DNA from: Chloroflexota bacterium
Lineage (GTDB): Bacteria; Chloroflexota; Dehalococcoidia; DSTF01; RBG-16-68-14
Assembly (NCBI GenBank): GCA_022562155.1
Contig: JADFPV010000003.1
Span: 412-64,411 of the forward strand
Length of the DNA: 64,000 nucleotides
Reading direction: 5' to 3'
Notes under the pieces: model-generated
What the model was told of the DNA's origin: nothing
Databases searched by the model: none
What the model saw: the letters and a program-made list of their open reading frames with translations, nothing else
Shown: piece after piece, positions 3,623 to 47,670 of the stretch
Position numbering within the stretch: the first letter of the stretch is position 1
Layout: each line of letters starts with the position of its first letter
Translations under genes and position numbers: made by a program

Positions 3623-6060
3623 ATGGGGAAGGCGAGCATGACGGTGCGCGCATGGTTGCGCTGGCCGGCGTTGGTGGCGCTCGGCGCGGTGCTGGTTCTC
3701 ATCGCCCTCCAAGGCAGCCTCGGCGCGGACGAAACACGAACCACCTGGGACTTCGAGGGCGCAGACGCCCTGGACGGCTGGGTGCGGTTGAACGCGACCA
3801 TGACCCTTGCGCCGGGCGAAGGTGCAGAGGGTTCCCAGGCTGCCGGCATCACGCTAAGGAGCCCAAGTAATATTCCCATCAGACGCGTCCTAGCTGAGAT
3901 TTGGTACCCCTTGGATGTCCAGCCGGGCGCCACGTACGAGTTTGGCGGCGTGTACGTATCCGCAGACGGCAAGATCGATTGGGTCCGGCTCGGCATGCGA
4001 CTCTACGACAAGCACGGCAACCCATTAGCTGCGGACGTCGGCCCCCATTCCTCTATTCCTGGCAAACTGCACCTAGAGGCCGCGCCGAACCTCTGCTCCG
4101 TAGTGGAAATACATTTCCGAGTGCTTACGTACGGCGCAATAGACGCAACGGTCTACCTGGACAACCTCTCCCTCAAAGAGAGCGCGCCCGCGACTCCGTG
4201 TCCCACGCCCATCCCGTCGCAGACTCCGACAGCGACGCCAGTCCCGTCGCAGACTCCGACATCGACGCCAAGCCCGTCGCAAACTCCTACATCGACACCC
4301 GTCCCGTCGCAGACTCCGACATCGACGCCAAGCGCATCACATACGCCAACCTCGACACATACGCCAAGCCCGTCGCAAACTCCTACATCGACACCCGTCC
4401 CGTCGCAGACTCCGACATCGACGCCAACGCCTTCCCACACTCCCGCTGCGACCGCGACGGCATCGCAGACGGCCAGCGATCAGCCCGCTACCGCGACCAA
4501 CACAGCGCCTGGCGCGACGGCAACCGAGCCGCCACCCGCTCCAGCGTCGTTGGAGTTCTCCAATGGCGGTTTCGAGGAGGGGGGGACGGCGAACCCCATG
4601 CCTGGAAACACTTCGGCGGGGTGCTGATGCAGACAGGCACGCCGGCGCGCACCGGCTCGTGGGCAGGTGCGCTCTTCAGTTCGACCGACAGCACCAAATG
4701 GGCGTTCCAAACGGTGAACGTTGAGCCCGCCGGCTGGTACGAGTTCCATGCCTTCGTCTACCACGACGACCCGTGGGTGGAGTCGGCGCTACTGCGCATA
4801 TCGTGGTATGCCAGCGCCAACGGGAGTGGCAGCGCCGTCGCCGCCGTCGACTCAACAGACCTGCTCGCGTCGCCCGCGCCGGAGTTCCGCCGCCTCAGCA
4901 CAGGCCCGGAAATGGCGCCGCCGGGCGTTCACTCGGCGAAGGTGCGCGTGCTCATGCGGCCCCGCGACGGGACTAGCGCCGTGATCTACATCGATGACGC
5001 TTCGTTTGACAACGTCGCAGCCCCGATTCCGCCGACGAGCACCCCCACGCTCGCGCCACCGACCACCACGCCCACGCCGGCCTCGACCTCGACGAACACG
5101 CCCACCGCTCAGCCCACAACCGTACCAGCCAGCCCGGCGCCGGCCGACACACCACAGCCGGCGGATACGCCACCGCCAGCGGACACGGCCACACCAGTTC
5201 CGGCGGCTACAGCCACCAACGCTTCGACGTCGACACCCGAGCCAGCGAGCATCCCGTCCGCACTCACCAACGCGGGCTTCGAATCCGCAGTGGAAGGGGT
5301 CCCGGTCGGGTGGCGGACGTTCGGTGGGCTGCTCATGCAGGTCGATTCGCCGGTGCGATCGGGCGCGGCGGCCGGCGGTTTCTTCAGCTCCAGCGGCAGC
5401 ACGAAGTGGATCTACCAGACGGTCGCCGTCGAGCCGGCAGCCTGGTACCAGTTCGACGCCTTCGTCTACCACAACCACGCGTTCGTCGATGAAGCGCTGC
5501 TGCGCATCTCCTGGTACGCGAGCGCCGATGGCAGCGGTAGCGCCCTCGCCAGCGTCGATTCGACCGGCCTGCTCGCTTCTCCCGAGGCTCGCTACCGGCC
5601 GCTCACCACTGGCCCTGTGCAGGCGCCGCCGGGCGCGCGCTCCGCCAAGCTCCGCATCCTCATGCGGCCCCGCGACGAGAGGAGCGCGCTGATCAACGTC
5701 GACGACGTTTCGTTCGGGCGCGTCGCCGCGCCGGCCGTCGCGCCATCGACACCGGCACCGGTCAGCGCAGCAGCATCTTCCCGAGTGCTATCTTCCTTCG
5801 AACCCGCCGCGCCATCGGTCAGCAACCAGCGACCAGCGACCACCAACCAGCGACCAGCGACCACCAACGAGCGACCCTCTCACGCCCCCATGCCCGCGCC
5901 CGTGCTCCGACGCCACGCCCTACAGACACCGGAGCCACAGCCCGATCGCGAGGGCGACCCGCTCTGGCCGTGGGCCCTCCTCGGCGCGACGGCAGGAGCG
6001 GGCGTTGTAGGTTGGGCGGCATACTGGGCGCTGCGGCGGCGACGCGATGCAGTAAACTAG
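3623..6060 (+). CDS. secreted multi-CBM4/9-like repeat protein with Pro/Thr linkers and C-terminal TM anchor; reading frame interrupted at a G7 tract (possible pseudogene or sequencing error)
   Basis: Signal peptide MGKASMTVRAWLRWPALVALGAVLVLIALQG. Three about 150-aa modules beginning NGGFE/NAGFE..GW (CBM_4_9-like), separated by PSQTPTSTP linkers. The frame switches from frame 2 to frame 1 at 4579-4585 (ggggggg). Ends with hydrophobic helix plus RRRRD. Confidence 0.6.
4205..4445 (+). repeat. tandem 30-nt coding repeat (cccgtcgcagactccgacatcgacgccaag, about 7 copies) encoding PSQTPTSTP linker
   Basis: Direct visual tandem repetition in sequence. Confidence 0.8.
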
Positions 6061-21762: not shown

Positions 21763-22134
21763 TTACGACATCTGTTTCGTCCACTCGGCGAGGTCGAAGT
21801 AATCTCGCCAGGCGGCGATCTTGCCGTCCTTGATCTCGAAGACGCCCATCACCTGCAGGCTCATCGACTTCGTGCCTGTAAAGTGGTCTACGCGTTCGGT
21901 GAGGACGACGTCTCCAGTCGCGGAGATGTTTAGGATCTCCCACTCGGCGCCATCGAACGCTGCCATGAACTGCTCGATCATGCCCTTAATGGCGTCTTTG
22001 CCCTGTACCGCCTGGATCGGCATGTTGTGGTAGACGGCGTCGTCGGTGAAGAACTCAAGGATCTTGCCGATGTCGTAGTTCGACCACGCGTCGCAGAAAC
22101 GCGTGACGAGGTCGATGTTCTCTTGTTCGCTCAC
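21763..22134 (-). CDS. SnoaL/NTF2-like fold protein (limonene-epoxide-hydrolase-like)
   Basis: 123 aa. LVTRFCDAWSNYDIGKILEFFTDDAVYHNMP pattern typical of the SnoaL-like fold. Confidence 0.5.
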   Translation of the reverse strand: MSEQENIDLVTRFCDAWSNYDIGKILEFFTDDAVYHNMPIQAVQGKDAIKGMIEQFMAAFDGAEWEILNISATGDVVLTERVDHFTGTKSMSLQVMGVFEIKDGKIAAWRDYFDLAEWTKQMS

Positions 22135-22138
22135 AGGA

Positions 22139-23023
22139 CTACCCGATCGTCGCGGAGGCGTTGGAAATGACGGGCTCGCCGCGTTCGGCCGTCGTCGCCT
22201 GGACCAGTACTTTACCGTCCGATTCGTTCCAGATCCGCGTCACGATCGTCTCACCTGGGAAGGCGACGCCGGAGAACCGCACCTCGAATGCCTTCAACTT
22301 AGCCGGATCGCCGTCGCAAACCGCGTGCAGTACGGCTCGCCCGACGTAGCCGAAGGTGCAGAGGCCATGAATGATCGGCTTGTCGAAGCCGCCCATCTTC
22401 GCGAATTCGGGGTCGATGTGGAGCGGGTTGCGGTCGCCCGACAGGCGGTAGATCGCCGCCTGGTCCGGCGAGGTCTTGTACTCGACGGTGTGGTCCGGCT
22501 CCCGCTCAGGCGGGACGTTCTTCTTGGAGGCGCTCGGCCCGCGATCGCCGCCGAAGCCACCCTCTCCGCGGAGAAAGATGCCAGACGTGTTCGTAAAGAG
22601 GACGTTCCCGCTCTCGTCTTTCGTGTCTACGGAGATGCTGACGAGCGCGCCGGAGCCCTTGTCGTAGATGCCCGTGATCTTGCCACCGGTCGTCAGCTTG
22701 CCGCTGGTCGGGATGGGGCCGTTCAGCGTGATGCTCTGCTCGCCGTGCAGGAGCATCATCGGGTTGAACTTTATGTACTTGCCGATACCACCGAGCGCCG
22801 GGAACGCCGGGATCACGCCGAAGGTCGGCAGCGTCTGGAGGTTCTTCTCGTAGACGAAGTTCAGCTCGTCCGCCGTCGCGCCGACGCCGAGGGCGTAGAG
22901 CATGACATCGCGGTCGGTGTACTCGAAGGTGGTTTCCGGCAGCTCCTTGCCGACAGCAGAGGCATCGATGGCCATGAGTTGTTCCTCCTCAGATTCAAAC
23001 TCGGTGCCCACGGATTCTAGCAA
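22139..23023 (-). CDS. MaoC-like (double hot-dog) dehydratase
   Basis: 294 aa, two hot-dog halves, MaoC-type motifs (H..LCTFG...). Confidence 0.65.
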   Translation of the reverse strand: MLESVGTEFESEEEQLMAIDASAVGKELPETTFEYTDRDVMLYALGVGATADELNFVYEKNLQTLPTFGVIPAFPALGGIGKYIKFNPMMLLHGEQSITLNGPIPTSGKLTTGGKITGIYDKGSGALVSISVDTKDESGNVLFTNTSGIFLRGEGGFGGDRGPSASKKNVPPEREPDHTVEYKTSPDQAAIYRLSGDRNPLHIDPEFAKMGGFDKPIIHGLCTFGYVGRAVLHAVCDGDPAKLKAFEVRFSGVAFPGETIVTRIWNESDGKVLVQATTAERGEPVISNASATIG

Positions 23024-23110
23024 GGGTGACAGGACAATGGGAAGAGTCTATATTGTAGACGATTGACAGCCCTCAGCAGTGAGACAACGCGGGAGGCGGA
23101 AGGTTCGAAC

Positions 23111-24232
23111 ATGCCAGGCAACAACGGAACGGTAGAGGCCAGACTTGAACCACAAGCAGAGCTTCAATTTGACGAGAGAAACCCGCGCCTTCTGGAGCAG
23201 CTTCGAAAGAACGGTACAGGCATCTCGCAGGAAGACATCATCCGGATACTTTGGCGCGAGTTCGCCGTTGACGAAGTTGCCATGTCCATCGCCGCGAACG
23301 GCTATTTCCAGCATGAACCGCTTTTCGTCACACGCGACGACGATCATCTGGTCGTAGTAGAGGGTAACCGGAGACTCGCCGCCGTGCGGCTGCTCCTAAA
23401 CAGCAACCTGCGACGCCAGCTTGGAGCAACAGATCTCCCTCGGATCACCGAACGAGTACGACGCGGTCTGCAGGAGATTCCCGTTATCGAGTGCCAACGC
23501 AATGCTGTTTGGGAGTACATTGGGTTCAAGCACGTAAACGGACCGCAGGCTTGGCAACCGGTCGCAAAGGCCGGGTACATCGCTTGGGTGCGGAACACGC
23601 TCAAAGTCCCTCTCGACCGGATTGCAAAACAGATCGGCGATCAGCATTCTACGGTTCGCCGACTTTATCGCGGCCTCATGGCCCTCGAGCAGGCCGAAGT
23701 AGCCGGTGTGTATGACCGCGAAGAACGCTGGAGAGCGCGCTTCGCCCTGTCACACCTCTACACAGGACTCGACTACCCTAGCATTCAGAAGTTTACGGGA
23801 ATTTCGGGTGAGGCCAGTTACTCGAAGCGGCGACCCATTCCGAAGAGGAAGATCAAGGAGTTCGGCGAGCTGTGCATCTGGCTCTACGGCAGCAAGACCA
23901 AGGAACAACCACCGATTGTGCAGCGTCAGAATCCTGACCTTAGGAATCTCGCCGAGGTGCTGGGAAGCAGAGATGGCCTAGCTGCGCTACGTAAGGGATT
24001 GCCTCTCCAAATCTCGTTGGACATTAGCAAAGGCGACGAACAGTTATTCAGAGAAGCGCTTGTTGCCGCGAAGCAGTCGCTCCAGGACGCGCGCGGAAGA
24101 CTCATAACGGGCTATGAGGGCGAACCCGACCTCTTGGACACCGCGGAGGACATTCGGGAACTCGCTGTCGACACCCACAAGGCGATGATAAAGGTTCACG
24201 ACTCGCGCCGGAAGAAGAGGCGCACAGGGTAA
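23111..24232 (+). CDS. ParB/Srx-like N-terminal domain protein (alternative start 23063)
   Basis: HLVVVEGNRRLAAVRLL arginine-containing ParB-box-like motif. RBS gggaggcggaagg lies before ATG 23111. Region GC is clearly lower than its flanks. Confidence 0.55.
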   Translation: MPGNNGTVEARLEPQAELQFDERNPRLLEQLRKNGTGISQEDIIRILWREFAVDEVAMSIAANGYFQHEPLFVTRDDDHLVVVEGNRRLAAVRLLLNSNLRRQLGATDLPRITERVRRGLQEIPVIECQRNAVWEYIGFKHVNGPQAWQPVAKAGYIAWVRNTLKVPLDRIAKQIGDQHSTVRRLYRGLMALEQAEVAGVYDREERWRARFALSHLYTGLDYPSIQKFTGISGEASYSKRRPIPKRKIKEFGELCIWLYGSKTKEQPPIVQRQNPDLRNLAEVLGSRDGLAALRKGLPLQISLDISKGDEQLFREALVAAKQSLQDARGRLITGYEGEPDLLDTAEDIRELAVDTHKAMIKVHDSRRKKRRTG

Positions 24233-24247
24233 CCTCCTGGAACAAGA

Positions 24248-25195
24248 ATGACACAGATACCCGCTGCGCCTGCAGCTTCGGCACCTCCAGAGAAACATGC
24301 GGACTGGCTAGAACTGCTAGCCCTCAGTTCGCCCGACAAGAACAGTTCGTTTCAGGACCTAATCAAGGAATTCAGGCACTCTGGATCGGTTGATGCCCTT
24401 GGGGAGGACGATTCGGTAGAGAAGTTTACCGATAAGGGCTCCGAACGCAGTCAGCTTCTAGCTGAAGAGGCTTTTAACGAGATCAGCGACCGCCACGACG
24501 CCTGCGGGATCGTTGCGAGCAGCTATGCGTTCGACATAAGCGCTCAATACATTCAGGCACGCCAGCAATACGACCAGTCTATCTACGCGTTTCTTCTCTT
24601 GCTAAGTAAGTTCGGAAAGGATGCAGGACCAGATACTATCGACCTGCTCGATCTGTTCGACAAAATCAGTGGGTCCGCTGCTAGCGAGTACATGGGTGGT
24701 CCGACGGCTGGGGTACAATTCTACTTGTTTGGCTTCCCACGAAGGGTAGCACCACCAGGCTTTCGAGATGCCCTGGATGATCTGTGTAACAGGCTTGGAG
24801 AGGGCGGCGGCTCTAAAGACGGCCCAACCAGGAAGAACCAGAAGGACGCCAAGTTAGACATAGCCGTGTGGCGAGCGTTCAATGATGGCCGTGTTGGCAA
24901 GTTCATCGGGTTCGGTCAGTGTGCAACGGGGGAAGATTGGCCTAAGAAACTAACGGAACTCCAGCCCACCAATTTCATTAAGAAATGGATGCATAAACCG
25001 CTCGCCGTGGATCCGATTAGGTTGTTCTTCACTCCTCACCGAGTACCGTATAGCGGGTGGGAGGATGATTCGATTGACGGCGGAGTACTGTTCGACCGCT
25101 GCCGAATTTCTGCGCTCACGAGAGATCTGGACGATACATTAGTCCGCGAGTGCAGAAAGTGGACTAGGTTCGTCATCAGGAAGCACCTCAAGTGA
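24248..25195 (+). CDS. hypothetical protein (possible nuclease partner)
   Basis: 315 aa, no confident motif. Stop overlaps the next gene's GTG start (coupled). Confidence 0.45.
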   Translation: MTQIPAAPAASAPPEKHADWLELLALSSPDKNSSFQDLIKEFRHSGSVDALGEDDSVEKFTDKGSERSQLLAEEAFNEISDRHDACGIVASSYAFDISAQYIQARQQYDQSIYAFLLLLSKFGKDAGPDTIDLLDLFDKISGSAASEYMGGPTAGVQFYLFGFPRRVAPPGFRDALDDLCNRLGEGGGSKDGPTRKNQKDAKLDIAVWRAFNDGRVGKFIGFGQCATGEDWPKKLTELQPTNFIKKWMHKPLAVDPIRLFFTPHRVPYSGWEDDSIDGGVLFDRCRISALTRDLDDTLVRECRKWTRFVIRKHLK

Positions 25196-28889: not shown

Positions 28890-30089
28890 TTACTCCAGAA
28901 TCTTCGTGAAGACGCCGGCGCCCACGGTGCGGCTGCCCTCGCGGATGGCGAAATGCAAACCCTCTTCCATGGCGACGGGCTGAATCAGCTTGATCTTCAT
29001 CTTCGTGTTGTCGCCCGGCATCACCATTTCGACGCCCTCTTCCAGCTCGATCTCACCAGTAACATCGGTCGTACGGATGTAGAACTGCGGGCGGTAGCCT
29101 TTGAAGAATGGTGTGTGGCGTCCGCCCTCTTCCTTGGAGAGAACATAGATCTCGGCCTCGCAGGTGGTGTGCGGGGTGATACTGCCGGGCGCGGAAAGCA
29201 CCTGGCCGCGCTGGATCTCTTCTCGCTCAACGCCACGGAGCAGGCAACCAACGTTGTCTCCGGCTTCGCCCTGGTCCAGCAGCTTCTTGAACATCTCGAC
29301 ACCAGTGACGACGGTCTTGCTGGTCTCCTTGAGGCCGACGATCTCAATCTCCTCGCCGACGTTGATCACCCCACGTTCGATCCGGCCGGTGACGACGGTG
29401 CCTCGGCCCTTGATGCCGAAGACATCCTCGACAGGCATCAGGAACGGCTGGTCCTTGGCGCGCTCCGGCAGGGGGATGTGTTCGTCAAGCGCCTTCACCA
29501 GCTCCCAGATGCTCTCGTATTCCGGGGCATCCGGGTCTTCGCTTTCGCTCTCCAACGCCTTGAGGGCGCTGCCGCGGATAATCGGGATGTTGTCGCCGTC
29601 GAAGTCGTACTTGGTAAGTAGTTCGCGCAGCTCCAACTCAACGAGGTCCAGCAGCTCCGGGTCGTCCATCATGTCCACCTTGTTGAGGTAGACGACCATA
29701 CTCGGAACTTCGACCTGCTTGGCGAGCAGTACGTGCTCGCGCGTCTGTGGCATCGGGCCATCAGGGGCGGCAACTACGAGGATGGCGCCGTCCATCTGAG
29801 CGGCGCCGGTGATCATGTTCTTGATGTAGTCGGCGTGACCCGGGCAGTCTACGTGTGCGTAATGGCGGTTCTCCGACTCGTACTCAACATGAGCGATAGC
29901 GATCGTGATTCCGCGTTCGCGCTCTTCCGGCGCCCTGTCGATGCTAGCGAAATCACGATACGACGCCCAACCCTTCAAGCCGAGTACCTTGGTCATAGCT
30001 GCGGTGAGCGTAGTTTTTCCGTGGTCAACGTGGCCAATGGTGCCTACGTTAACGTGCGGCTTGGTTCGCTCATACTTCTCTTTTGCCAT
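28890..30089 (-). CDS. tuf: elongation factor Tu
   Basis: [28 protein letters not shown]. Start set at the MAKEK ATG (30087-30089) preceded by GGAGG. The 41-aa upstream extension in the ORF track was rejected. Confidence 0.95.
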
Positions 30090-30167
30090 TACGTTGCTTC
30101 CTCCTTGTTCCTTCCTCCGAGCCTTCAGGCGGTTCCGGGCTGTTCTTGCCCGCTTACCTTTTTCACT

Positions 30168-30242
30168 TGGAGCCCACAATCGGGATTGAACCGATGACCT
30201 CGCCCTTACCAAGGGCGTGCTCTACCACTGAGCTATGTGGGC
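30168..30242 (-). tRNA. tRNA-Thr (anticodon GGU)
   Basis: Manual fold: acceptor GCCCACA/UGUGGGC, anticodon loop cUUGGUAa, T-loop GGUUCAAUCC, CCA encoded. Confidence 0.8.
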
Positions 30243-30313
30243 GCAGTATGCGCCAGAGCCGAACGCCCTTCTCTCTAGATTTTGGCCCTTCCAGCTTCCG
30301 GCGTCAATCTCAC

Positions 30314-30401
30314 TGGTGGAGGGGGCAGGATTCGAACCTGCGTAGCCCGTCAGGGCAACGATTTTACAGACCGCCGGTTTTAGCCACTCACCCACCCCTC
30401 C
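30314..30401 (-). tRNA. tRNA-Tyr (anticodon GUA), long variable arm
   Basis: Acceptor GGAGGGG/CCCCUCC, anticodon loop CUGUAAA, T-loop GGUUCGAAUCC, 88 nt. Confidence 0.8.
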
Positions 30402-30417
30402 GTAATTAGTTAGGTGG

Positions 30418-30493
30418 TGGAGCCCGCGAGGGGATTCGAACCCACTAACCTGTCGATTACAAATCGACTGCGCTACCATTGCGCCACGCGGGC
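30418..30493 (-). tRNA. tRNA-Thr (anticodon UGU)
   Basis: Acceptor GCCCGCG/CGCGGGC, anticodon stem GUCGA/UCGAC with loop UUUGUAA, T-loop GGUUCGAAUCC. Confidence 0.8.
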
Positions 30494-32125: not shown

Positions 32126-32236
32126 CGAAAACTAGAAGCGACCGTCCCCATTAAAGGACGGTCGCCGATTTCATCTTGAGCGCACACGCGAACGCGAAGC
32201 GTTCGCGAATAGCCTCCCGCCTCCGGCGGGAGGCAC

Positions 32237-32629: not shown

Positions 32630-34723
32630 CTACGGGCCAGTCACCTCGAAGGCCGTGTACATGCCTAGTCCGTAGTGAGTTGGCACGTTGCAGAACAGCA
32701 CGTACGTACCGGGAGCTAGGTCGGAACTGACAACCCTTTCATCACCGGAGGCCAGTGCGTCCGCAAAGCCGCCGACTTCGTCGAACTGGCTCTCATCAAC
32801 GGTCTGGCCGTCGACTGGGAGCGCATCCGGCGCCAGACCCGTAGCGACGTAGCGGAAGTTGTGGACGGTCGTGCCGTCGTTGTTCACCGTGAAGTCGATC
32901 GGCTCGCCGGTTGCGACAATGGGGTCTGCGATAACTTCGAACTCAACGAGCGACACGCCGACCTGCTCGGCGTCATCCCGCGGCGTGGCAACTGGCCCGT
33001 CAACGGGACCTGACACTAGCGGCGGGTTCTGGCCGCAAGTGGCGCCCGTTACTGTCGGAGCGTTCGGCGGCGCGGGGTGGTCGAGCACGAGCGTGCCGTT
33101 CTCGTGTCCTTCCGGGTCAGTGCCCAAGACGCCTCGTTCCACAATGACGACCTGGCCCAGGAAGAGCTCCGAGTTCTTGGCATGGTCCTCCACCGTCGTG
33201 GCACCTACTTCACGCTCGACTTCGAGGACATCGAAGAAGAGGCTAGTGCCGGTCTCGTGGGAGGCCGCGGACGTTCCCAGTACGCCACGCTCCACCTCGA
33301 GGAGGTTGCCCTCGAAGATCGACACGCGTCGCGAGTGTTCGCCGCGGTCCGTGCCGCCGACGCCGCGCTCGACCCGCAGGACCGCGGGCTGCGTCTCTGT
33401 CACGCGCACCAGCTCGTTCCCTATCTGGTACGTCTGGCCGGCCGAGATGCCGACGATGCCGCTCACGACGATCGTTGTCGCGTTCGCGCTGAGCGCTTCG
33501 ATCAACGTTTGGCCGGTGTCAGGATCTTCAAGCTCGACGCCTTCGTCCAGCTCTTCGTCTGATAGTGGTTCAAGAAGTTCTAGTATCTGAGTGTTGGACG
33601 TGTGCGTGGCCGCCGTGGTGGAACTGCCTTCCAAGTCGGGCGAGCCGCGTTCGATTGTGATCGTAGCGGGCTCCATGCTGAGCACTTCCAGCAGCTCTTC
33701 GCCCATGCGAATCTGCATGCCTACCTCGATGCCCGCGGTGCCCGTTACCGAGATCGTCGTTTGGGCTCGCCCGATCACGATCGCTAGTAATTGGCCGGTC
33801 TTGACGGGGCCAACGATCTCGATCTGTTCGTTGCCGGCGCGGACAACGATGCCAGCGCTGAAGAACGCCGGGTCGTCCAAAGAGATTACGGCAGCGCCCG
33901 ATCCTGTTGAAGCATCCAGTGCGATGTCAAAGTCGCCGTCCTCACGGATGCCGCTCACTTCGAGTAGCTCTGCGCCAAGACGAATGATGTCACCGATCTC
34001 GATGCCGTCGCTGCTGGTGACGAACAGTTCGTCCGGCGTCCGGCCGATTTCTTCGATGAGTCGCTGGCCGGTCGTGGGGATGTCGACGATCCGCATTCGC
34101 TCACCGTCGATGCGGATGAACTGATCGACTGCAAGCGGCGCGGCGTTGCTGACCGTGATGTCTGTCTCAGATGAGCTGAGCGAGCCGCCCGGCATCTGGA
34201 GCGTCGAGTGCTCCGTCGTTTCGGCATCGATCTCGTCAGCGTGATCCTGCGCCTCTTCCCAGAAGCCACCCTCCTGGTACGGATCAGCTCCTAAATCACC
34301 ACCGGTAATCAAGACGGCCAGCTGACGGACCTGTTCTTCGCTAAGCGTGCCGCCGTGAACGCGGCCCCAGGTCGGCATGAACGTGCCGGCTCGGCCACAC
34401 GTGATGACGTTCGTGACCATATTGAACTGTTCATTGAAGGCGGCGACGTTGAACACGCCCTTATCGATACCCTGCAGTTCCGGCCGGTCGAGGACCGGCG
34501 CAGCCGGGAGACGCCCGCCCATAACGCCGCCCTCGCCGCGGTCGCCGTGGCAGAGGCGGCAGTTCAGCGCGAACGTCGTGCCCGCGCGGTAGGCCGACAT
34601 CGCTAGCTGGTCATCTTCCGCCGTGTCCGCGCGGAAGGGATCGAACAGCGCGTAGGCCCCGACCGAGATCACGGTCAAGAGAAGGACGACGACCATGGCG
34701 TTAATTTGCTTGCCGGTGTCCAT
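32630..34723 (-). CDS. membrane-anchored monoheme cytochrome c fused to a C-terminal cupredoxin (type-1 copper) domain, with a long internally repetitive middle region
   Basis: N-terminal TM segment. Single CRLCHG heme-binding motif. C-terminal HNF....FCNVPTHYGLGM His/Cys/His/Met cupredoxin ligand pattern. Degenerate repeats of the type GIE(I/V)G..IR(L/M)G.ELLEV and VERGVLGT..H. Confidence 0.6.
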   Translation of the reverse strand: MDTGKQINAMVVVLLLTVISVGAYALFDPFRADTAEDDQLAMSAYRAGTTFALNCRLCHGDRGEGGVMGGRLPAAPVLDRPELQGIDKGVFNVAAFNEQFNMVTNVITCGRAGTFMPTWGRVHGGTLSEEQVRQLAVLITGGDLGADPYQEGGFWEEAQDHADEIDAETTEHSTLQMPGGSLSSSETDITVSNAAPLAVDQFIRIDGERMRIVDIPTTGQRLIEEIGRTPDELFVTSSDGIEIGDIIRLGAELLEVSGIREDGDFDIALDASTGSGAAVISLDDPAFFSAGIVVRAGNEQIEIVGPVKTGQLLAIVIGRAQTTISVTGTAGIEVGMQIRMGEELLEVLSMEPATITIERGSPDLEGSSTTAATHTSNTQILELLEPLSDEELDEGVELEDPDTGQTLIEALSANATTIVVSGIVGISAGQTYQIGNELVRVTETQPAVLRVERGVGGTDRGEHSRRVSIFEGNLLEVERGVLGTSAASHETGTSLFFDVLEVEREVGATTVEDHAKNSELFLGQVVIVERGVLGTDPEGHENGTLVLDHPAPPNAPTVTGATCGQNPPLVSGPVDGPVATPRDDAEQVGVSLVEFEVIADPIVATGEPIDFTVNNDGTTVHNFRYVATGLAPDALPVDGQTVDESQFDEVGGFADALASGDERVVSSDLAPGTYVLFCNVPTHYGLGMYTAFEVTGP

Positions 34724-34756
34724 CCGTCTCCTTACAGGACTCTCATGCAGCGACGC

Positions 34757-35497
34757 CTAGAGGCGTACTGCTCTATCCGGGTTATCCGGCGCGCCGTCTG
34801 TGGTGCTGCCAGTGTTGACCGAGACGCGGCCGTCGGAGCCGATCGTTAGGTCCATTGTGTCCAATGAACGCGGCGCCGGACCGAAGACGCGGATGCCGGC
34901 GTCGGTATACGTCGAGCCGTGGCAAGGACAGCGGAACCAGCCTTTCTTGTCTGCGCCCGTCGTCGGGTCCGGCCAGATGAAGTTCGGCTTCCAGGGGACG
35001 GTGCAGCCCAGGTGAGGACACTTCCACCAGAGCGCGAGCAGGCCCGGGCCGCCCTGCTCTTCGGTCAAGTTGACGAGCCAGAAGCGGCCTGCGGGAATCT
35101 GCACCTTCTGCCCAGGAGCCGGGACGGCGGCGGCGCCAACGGAGACCGTGCCGCCGAAGCCGGCAACGCCCCGCGGGTAGACAAAGTCGACAAAGCCGGC
35201 GCCCGCAGCGGCAAGTATGGCGCCCATGCCGCTCCAGAAGCCTAGCTGCAGAACGCGCCGCCGCGACACAATAGCCGTGCCCGGCACCCTTTTGGGTTGG
35301 ACGACCGCGGTTGATGGGCCACCAGGCTTGGCAGGTTCCTTCTCTTTCTTGGCTGGCTTTGCGGCCTTGGCTTGAGGAGCGTCGGCAGGGGCGGCGGGTT
35401 GCTCCTTCGCTTCGCCTTCAGGCGCCGCGCCTGTTGCCTCACCGCCTTGCGGCGCCGTCTCCTCAGGAGTTTCTTCGGTCTTTTCTTGTTCCGTCAT
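34757..35497 (-). CDS. Rieske [2Fe-2S] iron-sulfur subunit of a cytochrome bc-type complex (Ala/Pro/Glu-rich N-terminus)
   Basis: CPHLGC ... CPCHGS Rieske boxes. TM anchor. Confidence 0.8.
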   Translation of the reverse strand: MTEQEKTEETPEETAPQGGEATGAAPEGEAKEQPAAPADAPQAKAAKPAKKEKEPAKPGGPSTAVVQPKRVPGTAIVSRRRVLQLGFWSGMGAILAAAGAGFVDFVYPRGVAGFGGTVSVGAAAVPAPGQKVQIPAGRFWLVNLTEEQGGPGLLALWWKCPHLGCTVPWKPNFIWPDPTTGADKKGWFRCPCHGSTYTDAGIRVFGPAPRSLDTMDLTIGSDGRVSVNTGSTTDGAPDNPDRAVRL

Positions 35498-35500
35498 GTC

Positions 35501-36487
35501 TTAGTCGATATGGGGTACGTCCCAGGGCATGACCAAGTCCTGCCCCGCTCCGCGGAACCCCGCTCCGATGATGGTCAGAATGAAGTAGACGGCCATCATC
35601 CCTGTAAAGATACCGATCGATCCGTCGCGCATGGTGTGTATCCACCCCAACTTGCGCATCATCAGGATCATGATCACAGGCAATATCACCATAATGGCGA
35701 CCGGGATGAACAGCTCAACGACAAACGCGGGCGTGTTCATATTCAGGTCATACCAGTACATCGCCTGCATCCAGGCGGGTAAGAAGGTTGGCGGACCCCA
35801 ACGCATCCAGTCCGGCCCGCTGGTGCCGTTGAACGGCATGGGGACATGCGTAAAGTCGTCGGGCCAGTTCAGCTCGCCGTCATGCTCGCCCGGGCCCAAC
35901 TGCGCTGACACAGGCACGGGGATGCTCCATTCCCATCCGGTCTGGATCGAGCGCACGTTCTGGAACGGTGCGAGCTTGCCCGGCCACTGCCAGTCCTTAT
36001 CGCTCCGCTGCACGACGTTCGTGATGACGTTCACGTGGCGGCCCTGGTCGTACAGGATCAAGGCAACCGTGAAGATCGATGCGAACGCCCCGGAGAACAG
36101 AATGATCTTGACAGCGTTCGGCGTGCCGAACCAAGTGCCTTGGCCATCGTTCGACCTATCGATGTACGGGAAGGCTCCGATAATGGCTAGCCCGATGGTT
36201 GGAGCGATGACGCCACCAAGGGCCGGGTGCATGTGGAGCAGCAGCTCCTGAAGCGCCACCAGGTACCAGGCGGCCTTCGACGGGTTTGGCGTGATATCCA
36301 GGTTGGCCTGGTTGAGCAGCGGCGCGTCGAGCATGGTCGAGAGCAGGACGAACATGAACGTGAAGACCATGGCCGCGATGAATTCGACGAAGACGAGGTC
36401 TGGCCAAACGAGTAGCTCTTGCTCTCGCTCACGCCGAGGTCGTGTCGCGGACGCTTCGCTAGATACCGCCTGCGCGTTTACGGCCAT
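35501..36487 (-). CDS. cytochrome bc complex subunit IV-like (cytochrome b C-terminal half homolog) membrane protein
   Basis: Multi-TM protein directly downstream of the b6-like gene. PEWY-region-like segment (WPGKLAPFQNVRS...). Confidence 0.65.
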   Translation of the reverse strand: MAVNAQAVSSEASATRPRREREQELLVWPDLVFVEFIAAMVFTFMFVLLSTMLDAPLLNQANLDITPNPSKAAWYLVALQELLLHMHPALGGVIAPTIGLAIIGAFPYIDRSNDGQGTWFGTPNAVKIILFSGAFASIFTVALILYDQGRHVNVITNVVQRSDKDWQWPGKLAPFQNVRSIQTGWEWSIPVPVSAQLGPGEHDGELNWPDDFTHVPMPFNGTSGPDWMRWGPPTFLPAWMQAMYWYDLNMNTPAFVVELFIPVAIMVILPVIMILMMRKLGWIHTMRDGSIGIFTGMMAVYFILTIIGAGFRGAGQDLVMPWDVPHID

Positions 36488-36490
36488 CGA

Positions 36491-37246
36491 TCACAGAGGC
36501 CGTGCGAGGCCGCCGTCGCGCCTAATGCGCCAGAAGTGGACGGCCATGAAAATGGCTGCAATCAGTGGTAGTCCAATGACGTGAAGCGTGTAGAACCTGA
36601 TCAGCGCAGCGTCGCCTACCTCGAAGCCGCCGAGGAGCAATAACTGCTGCTGCTGGCCCATGACGGGCACGGTGCCGGCCATGTTCATCCCCACGGTGAC
36701 CGCCCAGATAGAGAGCTGATCCCACGGTAACAAATAGCCGGTAAAGCTGAGCGCAAGCGTCAGCGTGAGCAGGATGACGCCTACGAGCCAGTTGAACTCG
36801 CGCGGGGGCTTGTATGAGCCTGTGTAAAAGACGCGCATCATATGCAGGAAGACCGAGATCACCATGCCGTGCGCCATCCAGCGATGGAGGTTCCGCATCA
36901 GCATGCCGAAGCGGATGTTCGTCTCCAGCGCGGCCACGTCCTGAAACGCTCGGTCAGCCGCCGGCACGTAGTAGAACATGAGCATCACGCCCGTGACCGT
37001 CAGGCTTAGGAAGAAGAAGAACGTGATGCCGCCCAGGCAGTACGTGTGTGTGATGCGGACGTGCGTTTTGTGGAGTCGTGTCGGGTGGAGATGGAGAAAG
37101 ACGTTCGTCGCGACGACAAGCATCTGGTTGCGCGGCGTGCTCGGGTAGCCCGAACGGAAGATTGAACGCCAGATGTAGTTATGAAATAGTTTTTCGGACA
37201 GCCAGTTCGTTAGTCCTGGGCCAGGTGGTTGTTCAGAGACTGCCAT
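36491..37246 (-). CDS. cytochrome b6-like (split N-terminal cytochrome b) subunit
   Basis: YCLGGITFFFFLSLTVTGVMLMFYY matches the b6 heme-ligand helix region. His ligands in helices B and D. Confidence 0.8.
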   Translation of the reverse strand: MAVSEQPPGPGLTNWLSEKLFHNYIWRSIFRSGYPSTPRNQMLVVATNVFLHLHPTRLHKTHVRITHTYCLGGITFFFFLSLTVTGVMLMFYYVPAADRAFQDVAALETNIRFGMLMRNLHRWMAHGMVISVFLHMMRVFYTGSYKPPREFNWLVGVILLTLTLALSFTGYLLPWDQLSIWAVTVGMNMAGTVPVMGQQQQLLLLGGFEVGDAALIRFYTLHVIGLPLIAAIFMAVHFWRIRRDGGLARPL

Positions 37247-37267
37247 GGCTACCCCTGTGGATACGGG

Positions 37268-37393
37268 CTAGCGAGCCCACCACTGTCCCAGTACAAGCAG
37301 GATGGCGAACGCGATCATCATCGTTATGAACGCCCCCAGGAACTCGACGAAGTCAGGAGCCAGGAAGCCAACATCCCCAACGTCCCAGGGCAT
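37268..37393 (-). CDS. 41-aa single-TM protein at the head of the bc operon (manual)
   Basis: MPWDVGDVGFLAPDFVEFLGAFITMMIAFAILLVLGQWWAR. Position analogous to small PetG/PetN-like subunits. Not in the ORF track. Confidence 0.3.
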   Translation of the reverse strand: MPWDVGDVGFLAPDFVEFLGAFITMMIAFAILLVLGQWWAR

Positions 37394-37527: not shown

Positions 37528-38931
37528 GTGGTGGTGTGCTACGCTACGCACACTATGGCGGCCCAACGTGACTCCGATGGCAGACGGTTAGCAGGGCCGC
37601 GAAACGAGTGGGCGTCAGGCTGGAAAAATCCACGGATGATGAGGTGTTCAACACGCGGCCTGCTCGTTCTTCTCGCGTTGCTGGTTACGGCTACGGCGTG
37701 TGCTGGCAGTCGTGGGGATGATGGCGATGGCAGCTCGATGCTCTCAGGGGCCGTGTATATAGATACGTCTGGGAGCCTAGTCCGGGTTGACCTTGCCCGG
37801 CAGACGGCCTCCGAGGTCTACCGCTTCGAAGCGAGGCTCCTTCGCCAGAATGTTGTTTCCATTGAAGATCGCCTGATCTATGTGGACGTCGTTTCCTCTG
37901 GTGACGTGTTGGTACCCGTACTGCACGTCCTTGAGCGTGACACCGGTATCGAGCAGGCTCCCATTACGCTCGACCCGGTGCAAGGCGTATCTACGACAGG
38001 TAGCGCTGGCGAACTTCTGTTTCTCTCGCCCGGTAACCGCATCCACGTCTGGCACCTGCCACAACCCGGGTTGGTTGCAGTGGGCATCGCCGTGACGCAC
38101 GATGGATCGACATCATACAGGCTGGATCTCATCGACGCGCGGGACCTCTCAATCATCCGGTCGGTTGACCTGGGTGAGATGCCAGAGCGGCTAGGCGACA
38201 TCAGCATGGCGATCGATTCGAGCGGCAACGCGGCGGTTCTCCTCGGCACTAGCCGAATGAACAAGATGCTCGTCAGTTCTGGTAGCCTGTCGGAATTTCT
38301 ACCGGGCGGCGATCTAGCCGGCTGCGTGCGCGGTGCGTCCAGCACACCCAAGGCTCTACGGCGTTATTTTCTGTGTCGAAAGTCAGAGCCTGTCCTGAGC
38401 ACATCGATCGTAGTCGTCACCGCCGAGAATGAAGCAGAGTGGCGTCAGCTGCCTGGGGAGTTCGAGGACCCTTTATTCGGCGTCGTGGATGCCGGCAGCT
38501 CGGTGTTCGTTGGAAACGTGTTGAAAGCGACCGTTGTCGAATTTGATCTGGTCTCTCAACAGGTTGTGGCTGAACGGCAAGTATCTCGAAAGGGAGGCCC
38601 GCCGTTGCTGGGGCATCTGAGGGACATCTTTCTGGGGGGCAAGGCCGTGGCGCTCGGGGTGGTACGGCGGCCTATTGCCGTTTCCCCGGACGGAGAGCGC
38701 GTCTACTTCACAGACGCCACAAGAGTGTACTGTCTCCAGGCCCAGAACCTGGAAACTATCGGCGATGCGGAGTTCGAGTCCGTACGTTCGCTCGCGAGCT
38801 GGAACGATGATAAGTTCTTAGCTGCTGGCGAAACAACGCTCCACGTGCTGGACGCAACATGCAAGCTTGAAGCTTCGATCGAAATTCCCTTCGATACCCG
38901 TGGACCACCTCAGGAGGTGTTCGCTCCGTGA
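37528..38931 (+). CDS. hypothetical secreted lipoprotein (probable start at 37636)
   Basis: MMRCSTRGLLVLLALLVTATACAG signal peptide with lipobox Cys. Beta-rich repetitive body. Confidence 0.5.
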   Translation: MVVCYATHTMAAQRDSDGRRLAGPRNEWASGWKNPRMMRCSTRGLLVLLALLVTATACAGSRGDDGDGSSMLSGAVYIDTSGSLVRVDLARQTASEVYRFEARLLRQNVVSIEDRLIYVDVVSSGDVLVPVLHVLERDTGIEQAPITLDPVQGVSTTGSAGELLFLSPGNRIHVWHLPQPGLVAVGIAVTHDGSTSYRLDLIDARDLSIIRSVDLGEMPERLGDISMAIDSSGNAAVLLGTSRMNKMLVSSGSLSEFLPGGDLAGCVRGASSTPKALRRYFLCRKSEPVLSTSIVVVTAENEAEWRQLPGEFEDPLFGVVDAGSSVFVGNVLKATVVEFDLVSQQVVAERQVSRKGGPPLLGHLRDIFLGGKAVALGVVRRPIAVSPDGERVYFTDATRVYCLQAQNLETIGDAEFESVRSLASWNDDKFLAAGETTLHVLDATCKLEASIEIPFDTRGPPQEVFAP

Positions 38932-45183: not shown

Positions 45184-47670
45184 CTACTGACAGCTATGCT
45201 GGTACTGCTGGATCACGCCCATGATGTCGTTCGACAAGTCGATGACCCCGTCCGGCGCCGTCATGTTCCAGACGTTCGGGCCGGTCGATGGGCCGCGGTC
45301 GAAGTTGACGTCGTAGGTCGGCTCTGTACCCGTCGGCGCGTAGTGGATGATCACGCCGAAGATGTCGTTCGTAAGGTCAATGATCTGGTCCGGTGGCCCG
45401 CCGCCCCCTCCTAGCACATCGTAGTAGTCGTTCGGGTTTTGCCAGTCACGCATGCCGCCTAGCATCTCATCCGGCCCGTTCTCGCGCTGGTCAGAGCAGC
45501 CATCGCCGTCCGTGTCCGTTAGGTCGGGGGTTGGTGTCGGAGGCAGAGGCGTGGGCGATGGTGTGGCCGTTGGTGGGGGGCAGTCGGACACTGAGCACCA
45601 CTCAAACGCTCCAATGTCACAGGTGGCTACGTTGTCCCCATTTCCGTCGACCGGTCGAGTCTTACCGCGCTGATCAGTGCCCGGTGGCGGGCAGTCGCCG
45701 CTGCCGGCGTCGATCGCTGGACTACCGATGAGTAGGGCGTGAGTCTGAGTCGGGCCGCCGTTGTTCGCTAGCGGACCGAGCAGCGGGTTAGCGTTGCTGA
45801 TGTCGCCAGCCGCCGAAAGGCCGCACGTGCCGTCGCTATCCAGGTTATAGCCTGCAGAAGTGATGGTTCCGGAGCAGTCGCTCGCACCGTTATTGGCAAC
45901 AATTGTGTTCTTCAAGGTGACGGTGGCGGACTGGAAGGTATCGATGCCGCCGGCCCTGGCACCAGCGCCGGTCGCAGAGTTCCCACTGACGGTACTGTTG
46001 TTGAGGATCAAGATGGCGGACTGGAAGGTCCGGATGCCGCCGGCCTTGGTGGAAGAGTTCCCGCTGACAGTACTGTTGTTGAGGGTCAACGTGGCGAGTT
46101 GGAAGCTCTGGATGCCGCCGGTGCCGTGGTCGCCGGCGGAAGAGTTCCCGCTGACACTGCTATCGTTGAGTGTCAGGATGGCGGACTGGAAGCTCTCGAT
46201 GCCGCCGGTGCCGTAGTCGCCGTCGGCGACGTTCCCGCTGACGGTGCTGTTGTTGAGGGTCAGGATGGCGGACTGGAAGCTCTCGATGCCGCCAGCGCCA
46301 TAGCCAATGGTCGCGGTGTTGTTGCTGACGGTGCTGTCGTTAAGGGTCGTGTTGGCGCCCTGGAAGCTCTGGATGCCGCCGGTGCCGGCGTAGCCGGTCG
46401 CAGAATTGCCGGTCACAGTGCTGTTGTTGAGGGTCAGTGTGCCTCTTCTGTTCTCGATGCCGCCGGTGCCGTAGTCGCCGGCGGCATGACTGTCGCTGAC
46501 AGTGCTTCTGTTGAGGGTCAGCGTGCCTGAGCTTAAGATAGCGCCGATGCCGTAGTCACCGTTGTCCGAGCCATTTCGGATGGTCAGGTCGGAAATCTCC
46601 GCTGTAGCACTGATCATGATCTCAAAGACTCGGGAGAGCCCAGCGCCGTCGATGGCAGTAGTGGCAGCGCCAGCGCCGATGACCGTGATCTCGGTCGAAA
46701 TCGTCAGCTGCCCCTTAGACAGGAAGTACACGCCCGCAGGCACGCCGATCACCTGAGCGCCGGGAAGAGCGTTCGCCTCCTGAATCGCGGCTCGCAGCGT
46801 GCAGGCGCCTCCGGCCGTGGCGCATACGCCGTTGCCCTGACTGACGTCGTTGGCGTCGATCGTGCTATTGACGTTGAAGTCGGCCTCTGGTGGCGGTGTC
46901 GGCGTCGGTGTGTTGGTCGGCGTTGGGCACCCCTCAGGCGGGCACGGCGTCGGCGTCGGGGTGATGGTCGGCGTCGGTGTGATGGTTGGCGTCGGGGTGT
47001 CCGTCGGCGTGGGTGTGGCCGTTGGCGTCGGTGTGTCCGTCGGCGTCGGCGTCGGCGCGACGCAGTTGATCGTCAGCGAGCTGACCTTCGGTACGATGCG
47101 GGCGCCGGTGCCGGCCTCGATGAAGGCCGCGCCGTTCGTGCCGGCGTCCGGGTGTCCGTCCGGAAGCAGGTCGAGCGTGGCCGGTGAATCGACGGAAGTC
47201 AGCGGACACGCCATCGAGATCTCAACGACGTTCCCAACGTAGGTGCTGGTCGGCAGCGGCGGGATCAGGCCGGTCAGCGCACCGTGGATCAGCACGGAGC
47301 CGAGCTGCGCGCGCGTCACGATGACGGCGTCCGGCCAGACGATCTCGTCGAGCCCGGATGCCGTAGCTGCGTAGATGAGCTTGCCACCGAGTTCGATGGC
47401 CGTCTGCATCAGCGTGTAGCCGCCGGCGGGAATGCCGAGCGCATCGACAGAAAGCGTGAAGGAAGCGCCGGTGGGGACGCTGCACTTCGTAGGTCGAACT
47501 GGGTTGTCGCAATCGCCGCCCTTGATCGTGAGCACCATCTCCGGCCCGCCCGTCGCCGCGGAGGCCGTTTCGGAGCCACTATCTGTAACTGCCAGGGTGA
47601 AGATGACCGCCGCTGCGACGAGCAGCAGCGCCACGCCCCCCGTGACGGTCCTGAAAAGCGATCGAGTCAT
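45184..47670 (-). CDS. large secreted modular surface protein 1 (Ig-like Cys domain, PT linker, CSLREA-type motif plus parallel beta-helix repeats, Cys-rich module, dockerin-like C-terminal domain)
   Basis: Signal anchor [39 protein letters not shown]. About 10 PbH1-like repeats ([27 protein letters not shown]). [19 protein letters not shown]...CDIGAFE module. C-terminal [18 protein letters not shown]...[11 protein letters not shown]...[19 protein letters not shown]. Confidence 0.7.

Follow-up and report, generated by a model that had tools for sequence, protein, structure and literature searches.

A Rieske/cytochrome b6-type operon with a predicted heme c-blue copper subunit in an uncultured Chloroflexota bacterium

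An uncultured Chloroflexota bacterium related to Dehalococcoidia carries an operon for a cytochrome bc complex in which the c-type cytochrome is joined, within a single polypeptide, to a blue-copper domain. The operon lies on the minus strand of a stretch of 64,000 nucleotides (nt) of contig JADFPV010000003.1 (assembly GCA_022562155.1, positions 412 to 64,411), called the window from here on. Its genes encode a small membrane peptide of 41 amino acids (aa), a cytochrome b6-like protein, a subunit-IV-like protein, a Rieske protein and, at the end of the series, a protein of 697 aa. A model that saw only the DNA and its open reading frames (ORFs) had described these genes earlier (hereafter the original prediction), and all five ORFs were found in the order and at the coordinates it gave; the observation of a five-gene cytochrome bc operon with a heme-copper subunit is thus confirmed. 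As a whole, and with a probability of about 0.7, we read it as the operon of a quinol-oxidising Rieske/cytochrome b6-type complex, equivalent to complex III, whose heme c-copper subunit would carry a folded array of modules closed by a disulfide. Shown by the analysis are the order of the genes, the cofactor motifs together with their conservation, the folds predicted, the variability in module number and the synteny.

The five ORFs of 37393..32630 are separated by gaps of 21, 3, 3 and 33 nt. The second of them, the 251-aa protein, is a cytochrome b (Pfam Cytochrome_B, E 2e-47) whose closest solved relatives are the cytochromes b6 of b6f complexes (E 8e-49). Four histidines, making up both heme bL/bH pairs, align with His86, His100, His187 and His202 of spinach b6. 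Its YCLGG motif, found in all 26 relatives compared, aligns with the b6 YCLGG that contains Cys35 of the heme ci/cn site; the cysteine for attachment of heme ci/cn is present, which makes this a putative heme site. The neighbouring 328-aa protein aligns with the C-terminal halves of long cytochromes b and with b6f subunit IV among PDB entries, the matches being weak and petD-like (Pfam Cytochrom_B_C E 0.0026 over residues 61-117; PDB subunit IV E 0.016). As read from its sequence, it also has an additional extramembrane stretch, about 100 aa long, along with two more hydrophobic segments. Cytochrome b is therefore split into two ORFs lying side by side, and this, together with the nearest structures and the heme ci cysteine, upholds the b6-type assignment made at the outset. 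The Qo motif of the 328-aa protein reads AAWY at the place where PEWY is usual, and relatives carry either APWY (24) or AAWY (6). Such motifs fit the mixed “APWY clade,” Chloroflexi included, described by Kao and Hunte (PMC4122944).

The Rieske protein is recognized by Pfam (28.4 bits, with a gathering score of 20.3) and by the PetC-like model of NCBIfam (3e-13). Its cluster boxes are well kept among relatives, with CPHLGC in 38 of 38 and CPCHGSTY in 35 of 38. The N-terminus consists of about 75 low-complexity residues rich in Lys, Ala, Pro, and Glu, followed by an anchor containing RRR, and most of the length variation among relatives (226 to 410 aa) is N-terminal. Finally, the 41-aa peptide has no match in Pfam or NCBIfam, and about 20 related loci have a homologous small ORF (phmmer E as low as 5e-23) immediately ahead of the gene for cytochrome b.

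One automatic name for the cytochrome b deserves caution. The protein scores barely above the cut-off of the NCBIfam model ExtP (NF040969; 292.7 bits vs. 290), while the neighbouring subunit falls far below that of ExtQ (NF040970; 54.7 vs. 150). Both models describe b-type cytochromes of the selenite/tellurite reduction operon, the metalloid-reduction operon of Geobacter. Since the first score is marginal and the second far under its cut-off, the cytochrome b is treated as a relative of ExtP and not as a member, even though automatic annotation could misname it on score alone.

The 697-aa protein is identical to the NCBI entry “hypothetical protein IH865_00920 [Chloroflexi bacterium]” and is the only c-type cytochrome in the operon. 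An AlphaFold2 (AF2) model gave a mean predicted local distance difference test (pLDDT) score of 85.6 and a predicted template modelling (pTM) score of 0.61. The protein has a single CxxCH, the CRLCH at residues 55-59 (34561..34547), in agreement with the original prediction; every homologue also has just one, at position 55 in nearly all of 120 sequences. In an alignment of 56 of these proteins C55, R56, C58, H59, and M116 are invariant, M116 being the likely distal methionine, set in GTFMPTWG (family motif GTxMPxW). A profile of the family matches the heme domains of CcoP (2.6e-5) and of actinobacterial QcrC (3.8e-5) including their GRxxxMPxW methionine loop, and the GRxxAMPAWG of CcoP aligns with the M116 region. 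PF13442 is recorded for many homologues. In the AF2 model the cytochrome c domain is helical over residues 29-169, with helices at 29-54, 93-109, 129-140, and 155-169 (DSSP). The N-terminal transmembrane helix that had been noticed earlier is present and highly conserved, G22, Y24, and R31 being invariant in the 56 sequences. Such conservation is expected of a helix packed in a complex and not of a cleaved signal peptide; a cleavable signal peptide (AYA at 23-25) was considered and found less likely than an uncleaved anchor.

At the other end of the chain, the predicted copper ligands are H621, C678, H683, and M688. The first two are invariant and the last two conserved in at least 90% of the 56 sequences. 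The C-terminal copper loop, FCNVPTHYGLGM (residues 677-688), recurs near the C-terminus of nearly every complete homologue among the 120. The His-Cys-His-Met ligand set proposed originally is thus the right one, but not its spacing, which is C-x4-H-x4-M and not C..H....M. Foldseek places the domain closest to auracyanins (6kol, E 1.3e-6; 1qhq, 7e-6), with a probability of 1.00 to 6kol, 1qhq, 7z3b, and 4hcf, its matches including AcoP and the Cupredoxin_1 structure 4hcf. The model is confident here, with a pLDDT of 85-93 over residues 586-697. The family profile likewise matches auracyanin 6kol (2.3e-5) and 1ov8/1qhq (2.5e-5) with the entire ligand loop aligned, the consensus iCnvpthyesgm facing the auracyanin loops LCTYPAHYAGGM and ICTFPGHYLAGM. 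In length and pattern, the loop CNVPTHYGLGM is the same as CTYPAHYAGGM and CTFPGHYLAGM of auracyanins, and precomputed PF06525, PF13473, or PF00127 matches are recorded for homologues. By profile and predicted fold the C-terminal domain is therefore auracyanin-like; it is not an auracyanin, since it is not free-standing. Two types of copper loop exist in the family, CN[VI]PxHYxxGM in most long forms and CD[VI]HPxxM in the short forms and a few long ones. The long forms P0058, P0064, P0067, P0077, P0079, and P0091 combine the CD[VI]HPxxM loop with two extra cysteines in the cupredoxin. This coexistence of loop types indicates at least one exchange of the C-terminal domain within the family.

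The monoheme cytochrome c-cupredoxin fusion is in this way borne out: the sole c-type cytochrome of the operon is joined to a cupredoxin, and the four ligands of the latter are invariant or nearly so. Neither an incomplete ligand set nor a CxxCH outside a cytochrome was found, the ligands being conserved and the profile matching known heme domains. The Pfam search suggested with the original prediction returned only sub-threshold matches for the heme and copper domains; the family profile supports both, and Foldseek supports the copper domain. An assembly or frameshift artefact as the source of the fusion was rejected, as more than 100 protein clusters from independent assemblies share this architecture, and so do 36 species-representative genomes.

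What, then, lies between the two redox domains? The region had been described as degenerate repeats forming a long repetitive spacer. The repeats themselves are real: the best 15-residue windows of a self-comparison score 52, 47, 44, and 42, whereas 20 shuffles never exceed 35. The remainder of that description has to be replaced, because the region (residues 172-556, about 385 residues) is conserved to the same degree as the redox domains and is confidently folded, in prediction, into beta-barrel modules. It is all-beta at a pLDDT of about 90 in the full model and all-beta again in a separate model of the array (pLDDT 87.3, pTM 0.72), with paired strands up to 18 residues long. High pLDDT and conservation together rule out a low-complexity or disordered linker. 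A hidden Markov model (HMM) built from clear module instances finds seven matches in the 697-aa protein, four longer ones and three 25-residue “VERGVxGTxxxxHxxG” hairpins. In homologues the same HMM counts no module in a 285-aa protein (locus L025), one in forms of about 395 aa, two in forms of about 435 aa, three in a 511-aa form, and up to nine in forms of 750-790 aa. The redox sites are unchanged while the module number goes from 0 to 9. In the class of about 435 aa, one module is inserted within the cytochrome c domain itself, between the LQG region and the TCGR motif.

The modules resemble parts of phage virions. PHROG profiles of tail, baseplate wedge, and tail fibre proteins match the array at 4e-7 to 5e-4, and the module type is related to virion accessory beta-barrels such as the P22 coat I-domain (2m5s/5uu5), the tip attachment protein J (8rk3), and the decorations of tail tubes and fibres; here, by contrast, the modules sit inside a bacterial respiratory subunit. 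A tblastn search of the array against 50,697 phage genomes gave one weak match only (Streptomyces phage Dagobah, E 5e-4), so that the link to phages rests on profiles and fold and not on close sequence similarity. Foldseek against BFVD found only multi-domain matches of low TM-score (template modelling score) to cyanophage structural proteins. A Pfam search of the array and of its parts assigned no family, the only match being a sub-threshold Ig_CFAP65, and no viral genes were found near the operon in the 64-kb window. The beta-barrel module appears to be an undescribed and widespread repeat. Giant proteins of 1911 to 7472 aa (P0133, P0204, P0209, P0215, and P0146) match the module region in up to 23 stretches, and the array-sharing proteins P0146, P0251, P0142, P0217, and P0211 (553-1911 aa) showed no Pfam domain when scanned. 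In the 697-aa protein, the array is most likely a structural scaffold or a docking surface.

A pair of conserved cysteines brackets this array. Exactly five cysteines are present in 104 of the 120 homologues: two for the heme, one for the copper, Cys109 within the TCGR of the cytochrome c domain, and Cys563 (CGQ), where a Pro-rich tether begins. C563 is invariant in the 56-sequence alignment. Across 143 proteins, the distance between the equivalents of Cys109 and Cys563 ranges from 73 to 574 residues, while that from the second of them to the copper cysteine remains constant at 96-121. Because the loop varies in length and the tether does not, a disulfide is the simplest reading, and Cys109 and Cys563 probably form an extracytoplasmic bond that closes the module array into a loop. 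Such a bond would pin the tether of the cupredoxin, at its start, to the heme domain and leave the array as a protruding loop. The copper domain would then hang beside heme c on a tether of constant length, whatever the number of modules. A lipobox inside the chain at Cys563, left over from a lipoprotein auracyanin, was also considered and rejected: the residues preceding the cysteine (GAT, GYV, QSS) misfit L-[AST]-[GA]-C, and no hydrophobic stretch lies ahead of it.

These data also bear on the idea of a spacer, flexible or rigid, with which the copper domain would swing or reach toward a distant acceptor, such as one beyond a cell-wall or S-layer space. In its favour, a long array of 385 residues does lie between both redox domains, and its long paired strands suggest an elongated shape; moreover, Chloroflexota are generally considered to be single-membrane bacteria (PMC3971608), so that extracytoplasmic carriers need a tether. 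Yet relatives with zero to three modules keep the operon and the redox sites, and the module that one lineage has within its cytochrome c domain cannot act as a spacer there. The cysteine pair encloses the array while the tether beyond it keeps its length, and a copper domain held far from heme c could not receive its electrons. A spacer function is accordingly thought unlikely, and a disulfide-closed array beside two adjacent redox centres is preferred.

Homologues of the 697-aa protein number more than 100, nearly all from Chloroflexota/Dehalococcoidia; about 90 are full-length at 665-820 aa, and a further class measures about 435-457 aa. When one genome per species was scanned, 36 genomes proved to encode the protein, all of them metagenome-assembled genomes (MAGs); 35 are labelled Chloroflexota, Dehalococcoidia, or “Chloroflexia,” and one Binatia. 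The order small peptide, cytochrome b, subunit-IV-like protein, Rieske protein, cytochrome c-cupredoxin is found in every locus with sufficient flank, and two metagenome contexts show it as well. The window shares a wider synteny as well, comprising purF-purM-purH, a family 2 glycosyltransferase, the operon, and an amidohydrolase.

This constancy matters for a second alternative, in which the 697-aa protein is not a subunit at all but a separate anchored carrier sharing the transcript, or a cupredoxin for copper handling or assembly. Free-standing tethered carriers do exist in the form of auracyanins, according to the passage of PMC5826079 that cites Majumder et al. (2013). For copper handling speak the copper chaperone genes adjoining the operon in one relative and the weak Pfam placement of the domain in Cupredoxin_1, a family with members of unknown role. 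But a Rieske protein needs an acceptor, and the 697-aa protein is the only cytochrome c on offer; its gene is always the fourth or fifth of the operon in the 36 genomes, and its anchor helix is highly conserved. As for copper handling, the complete His-Cys-His-Met set and its loop of auracyanin type bear the signature of redox function and not of a chaperone. This alternative is hence held to be improbable, and the protein is read as a subunit of the complex.

As such a subunit it would work as follows. Quinol would be oxidised at the APWY/AAWY-type Qo site, and one electron would pass to the Rieske [2Fe-2S] cluster. From there it would move to heme c of the anchored 697-aa subunit, the equivalent of cytochrome c1 or f, and then to the tethered auracyanin-like copper centre on the same membrane-anchored polypeptide. 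The type-1 copper would finally deliver it to a terminal acceptor, for which the CuA site of a heme-copper oxidase is the likeliest candidate. In this way the work of a separate auracyanin, plastocyanin, or cytochrome c would fall to the fused copper domain, and the array may serve docking to the partner complex or to the cell envelope. Replacement of a soluble auracyanin- or plastocyanin-like carrier had already been suggested by the original prediction; the ligand-for-ligand alignment with auracyanins makes the suggestion reasonable, and we keep it in the conditional. The loading of the cofactors, the route of the electrons, the disulfide, the partner, and the function of the array are all inferred from sequences and models.

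Could electrons flow the other way? Phage-type barrel modules often bind surface polymers. In an “uphill” arrangement, the copper domain and array would take electrons from an external donor such as Fe(II) or a reduced metal or mineral and pass them through heme c and the Rieske protein to the quinone pool, like the rusticyanin/AcoP/cytochrome c/bc1 chain of Acidithiobacillus; this is the least probable of the readings, for although the acidophile cupredoxin AcoP is among the top Foldseek matches, the cytochrome b just passes the ExtP cut-off, and the array could bind something outside the cell, the AcoP match reflects the generic cupredoxin fold (15% identity) with auracyanins better, also by profile, no outer-membrane or multiheme partners occur in the operon or window, and the synteny is with purine biosynthesis and housekeeping genes.

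Several observations nevertheless count against a quinol-oxidising complex with a heme-copper exit subunit. On the 697-aa protein the Pfam scores remain under their gathering scores, for Cytochrome_CBB3 (20.4 bits vs. 27, E 6.5e-4) as well as for Cupredoxin_1 (14.6 vs. 27) and SoxE (12.4 vs. 21). The Qo motif is AAWY/APWY instead of PEWY, so that quinol chemistry may deviate from that of textbook complexes. With respect to the disulfide, homologue P0086 lacks the first extra cysteine, and AF2 gives no confident position for residues 111-118 and 557-577 (pLDDT below 50 at 557-577). All homologues are derived from metagenomes. Lastly, neither a terminal oxidase nor other respiratory genes were found elsewhere in the 64-kb window, the rest of which is housekeeping.

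The original prediction ended the operon at 32630, and here it needs to be extended, as the transcription unit probably runs on through two further small genes, named dx1 and dx2. Both products are desulforedoxin-like by Pfam Desulfoferrod_N (gathering score 23), dx1 at 32.5 bits with the motif CSKC...CC and dx2 at 23.6 bits with CETC...CC. The pair follows the cytochrome c-cupredoxin gene on its 3′ side in about 22 related Chloroflexota loci, zero- and one-module forms included; among the related loci compared, it is missing from the clade of ~435-aa proteins. A terminator scan found no terminator-like site between 32630 and 32518. The longest stem of that scan, a 13-pair hairpin (32166..32137), stands right 3′ of dx2 and before the amidohydrolase gene. 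As the total number of sites in the region equals the chance expectation, the hairpin is a consensus match only, and a role as operon terminator is plausible. On this sequence evidence, dx1 and dx2 are probably co-transcribed members of the operon, with dx2 as its last gene. The features are collected in Table 1.

Table 1. Genes, protein domains, and other elements of the operon, in window coordinates.
Feature	Position	Strand	Basis
41-aa single-helix membrane peptide, first operon gene	37268..37393	(-)	ORF
Cytochrome b6-like subunit, 251 aa, four-helix, two predicted b hemes	36491..37246	(-)	Pfam Cytochrome_B
Subunit-IV-like subunit, 328 aa	35501..36487	(-)	Pfam Cytochrom_B_C and PDB matches, weak
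Rieske [2Fe-2S] subunit, 246 aa	34757..35497	(-)	Pfam Rieske
Heme c-cupredoxin subunit, 697 aa, putative electron-exit subunit	32630..34723	(-)	ORF
Anchor helix and class-I cytochrome c domain, residues 9-170	34214..34699	(-)	alignment, profile, AF2 model
Beta-barrel module array, residues 172-556	33056..34210	(-)	AF2 model, module HMM
Pro-rich tether, residues 557-585, holds Cys563 (TCGQ)	32969..33055	(-)	low pLDDT, alignment
Auracyanin-like type-1 cupredoxin, residues 586-697	32633..32968	(-)	ligands, Foldseek, profile
dx1, desulforedoxin-like, 39 aa	32399..32518	(-)	Pfam Desulfoferrod_N
dx2, desulforedoxin-like, 47 aa	32237..32380	(-)	Pfam Desulfoferrod_N
Terminator-like hairpin	32137..32166	(-)	13 pairs, 8 G-C, T-rich tail

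Some surrounding genes are worth recording in their own right. In a related Dehalococcoidia MAG (L001, 5246-6876), the copper chaperone genes SCO1/SenC and PCuAC-like (PF04314) stand immediately 5′ of the cytochrome b gene, which also counts in favour of the preferred reading; the corresponding upstream place in the window is occupied by an unrelated plus-strand ORF of 467 aa, divergent from the operon and with an N-terminal hydrophobic segment. ORFs of the window without a Pfam match at the thresholds used are located at 37528-38931 (+), 45184-47670 (-), 3901-6060 (+), and 22103-25195 (+), and are 467, 828, and 719 aa, as well as 305, 389, and 315 aa, in length. Upstream of the EF-Tu gene are tRNA-Thr(ggt), tRNA-Tyr(gta), and tRNA-Thr(tgt) (30168-30493). 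The 440-aa EF-Tu ORF (28890-30212, with a TTG at 30212) overlaps the first tRNA, which indicates that the true EF-Tu start is internal. On a Joint Genome Institute (JGI) metagenome contig (L045, 8001-10334), the gene for the 777-aa protein P0132 forms the end of a caa3-type oxidase operon; in the protein, several cupredoxins of the same subtype come after a prokaryotic cytochrome oxidase subunit IV domain, so such cupredoxins are fused on the oxidase side too.

A bolder proposal goes further than the reading preferred here. In an aerobic lineage related to Dehalococcoidia, complex III might be self-contained and “wired,” its heme c and auracyanin-type copper centre held together by a disulfide-closed scaffold of zero to nine domesticated phage-tail-type modules, with this scaffold docking to an oxidase or to the envelope as an obligate supercomplex, and with dx1/dx2 as cytoplasmic-side partners of the heme ci/Qi site. 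We regard this as speculative and rather doubtful; if true, it would be the first Rieske/cytochrome b complex to combine an exit wire of heme and copper with an n-side iron protein of its own.

Within Rieske/cytochrome b complexes, conservation is lowest in the third redox subunit, which records how a lineage links quinol oxidation to its acceptors. Genes of the 697-aa type are currently labelled “hypothetical protein” or “c-type cytochrome.” Some homologues bear the automatic JGI name [quoted passage not shown] meaning that the domain pair is already visible to annotation pipelines. No description of a heme c-cupredoxin subunit of a bc complex, or of the module array, was found in the searchable literature, outside which much of the subscription bioenergetics literature lies. 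If the preferred reading is true, auracyanin-type proteins would be tied to bc complexes besides Alternative Complex III (ACIII), and respiration without any diffusible carrier would be predicted in environmentally widespread uncultured bacteria. The array clearly exemplifies how barrels of the phage-virion type are recruited into a protein at the core of bioenergetics, and the natural series of module copy numbers (0, 1, 2, 3, 7-9) can be used to probe what such decorations do.

Among known systems, the Firmicute and heliobacterial b6c and the cyanobacterial b6f complexes share with this operon the split cytochrome b, the heme ci cysteine, small hydrophobic subunits, and the Rieske CPCHGS-Y. 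As the c-type subunit, Bacillus has subunit IV fused to cytochrome c, heliobacteria have a diheme cytochrome c, and b6f complexes have cytochrome f, none of them with copper, and they differ in their Qo motif, which is AAWY/APWY here. The subunit II of caa3-type oxidases, of which the L045 operon is an example, also joins a cupredoxin covalently to a class-I cytochrome c in a respiratory complex. It does so on the oxidase side, however, with a binuclear CuA, a reversed domain order, and no beta-barrel array.

Blue-copper proteins can take the place of cytochrome c between Rieske/cytochrome b and an oxidase, as do sulfocyanin SoxE with SoxM in Sulfolobus and also the halocyanins of haloarchaea. 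Pfam SoxE is recorded for many homologues and is weak on the 697-aa protein. Contrary to the present arrangement, in which heme c and copper stand in series in one chain, sulfocyanin is a separate subunit without heme c. Another close system is that of the auracyanins of Chloroflexus and Roseiflexus (1qhq, 1ov8, 2aan, 6kol), acceptors of ACIII, which belong to the same phylum and give the best fold and profile matches. They share the C-x4-H-Y-x2-G-M ligand loop and a Pro-rich tether ahead of the fold. Auracyanins are nonetheless separate proteins, each anchored by a lipid or helix of its own, and they work with ACIII, whereas here the domain is the C-terminus of a cytochrome c subunit.

A counterpart in design is QcrC of the actinobacterial bcc complexes (PDB 6hwh, 7q21, 7e1v), in which a built-in second redox domain replaces the diffusible carrier and an N-terminal anchor helix precedes the CxxCH domain. 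Sequence similarity to it is weak but direct, consisting of the PDB QcrC matches and of the NCBIfam model bc1_QcrC_actin over residues 8-69; that model scores 16.2 bits against a cut-off of 200, and the 697-aa protein has one CxxCH and not the tandem pair. QcrC contains two heme c domains, whereas the present subunit pairs a heme c with a type-1 copper and has the beta-barrel array in between, and the actinobacterial cytochrome b is long, while here it is split, b6-like, and equipped with the heme ci cysteine. If true, the covalent relay from heme c to type-1 copper would be a new way of linking quinol oxidation to an acceptor, an analogue of the diheme QcrC but built with the blue-copper carrier typical of Chloroflexota.

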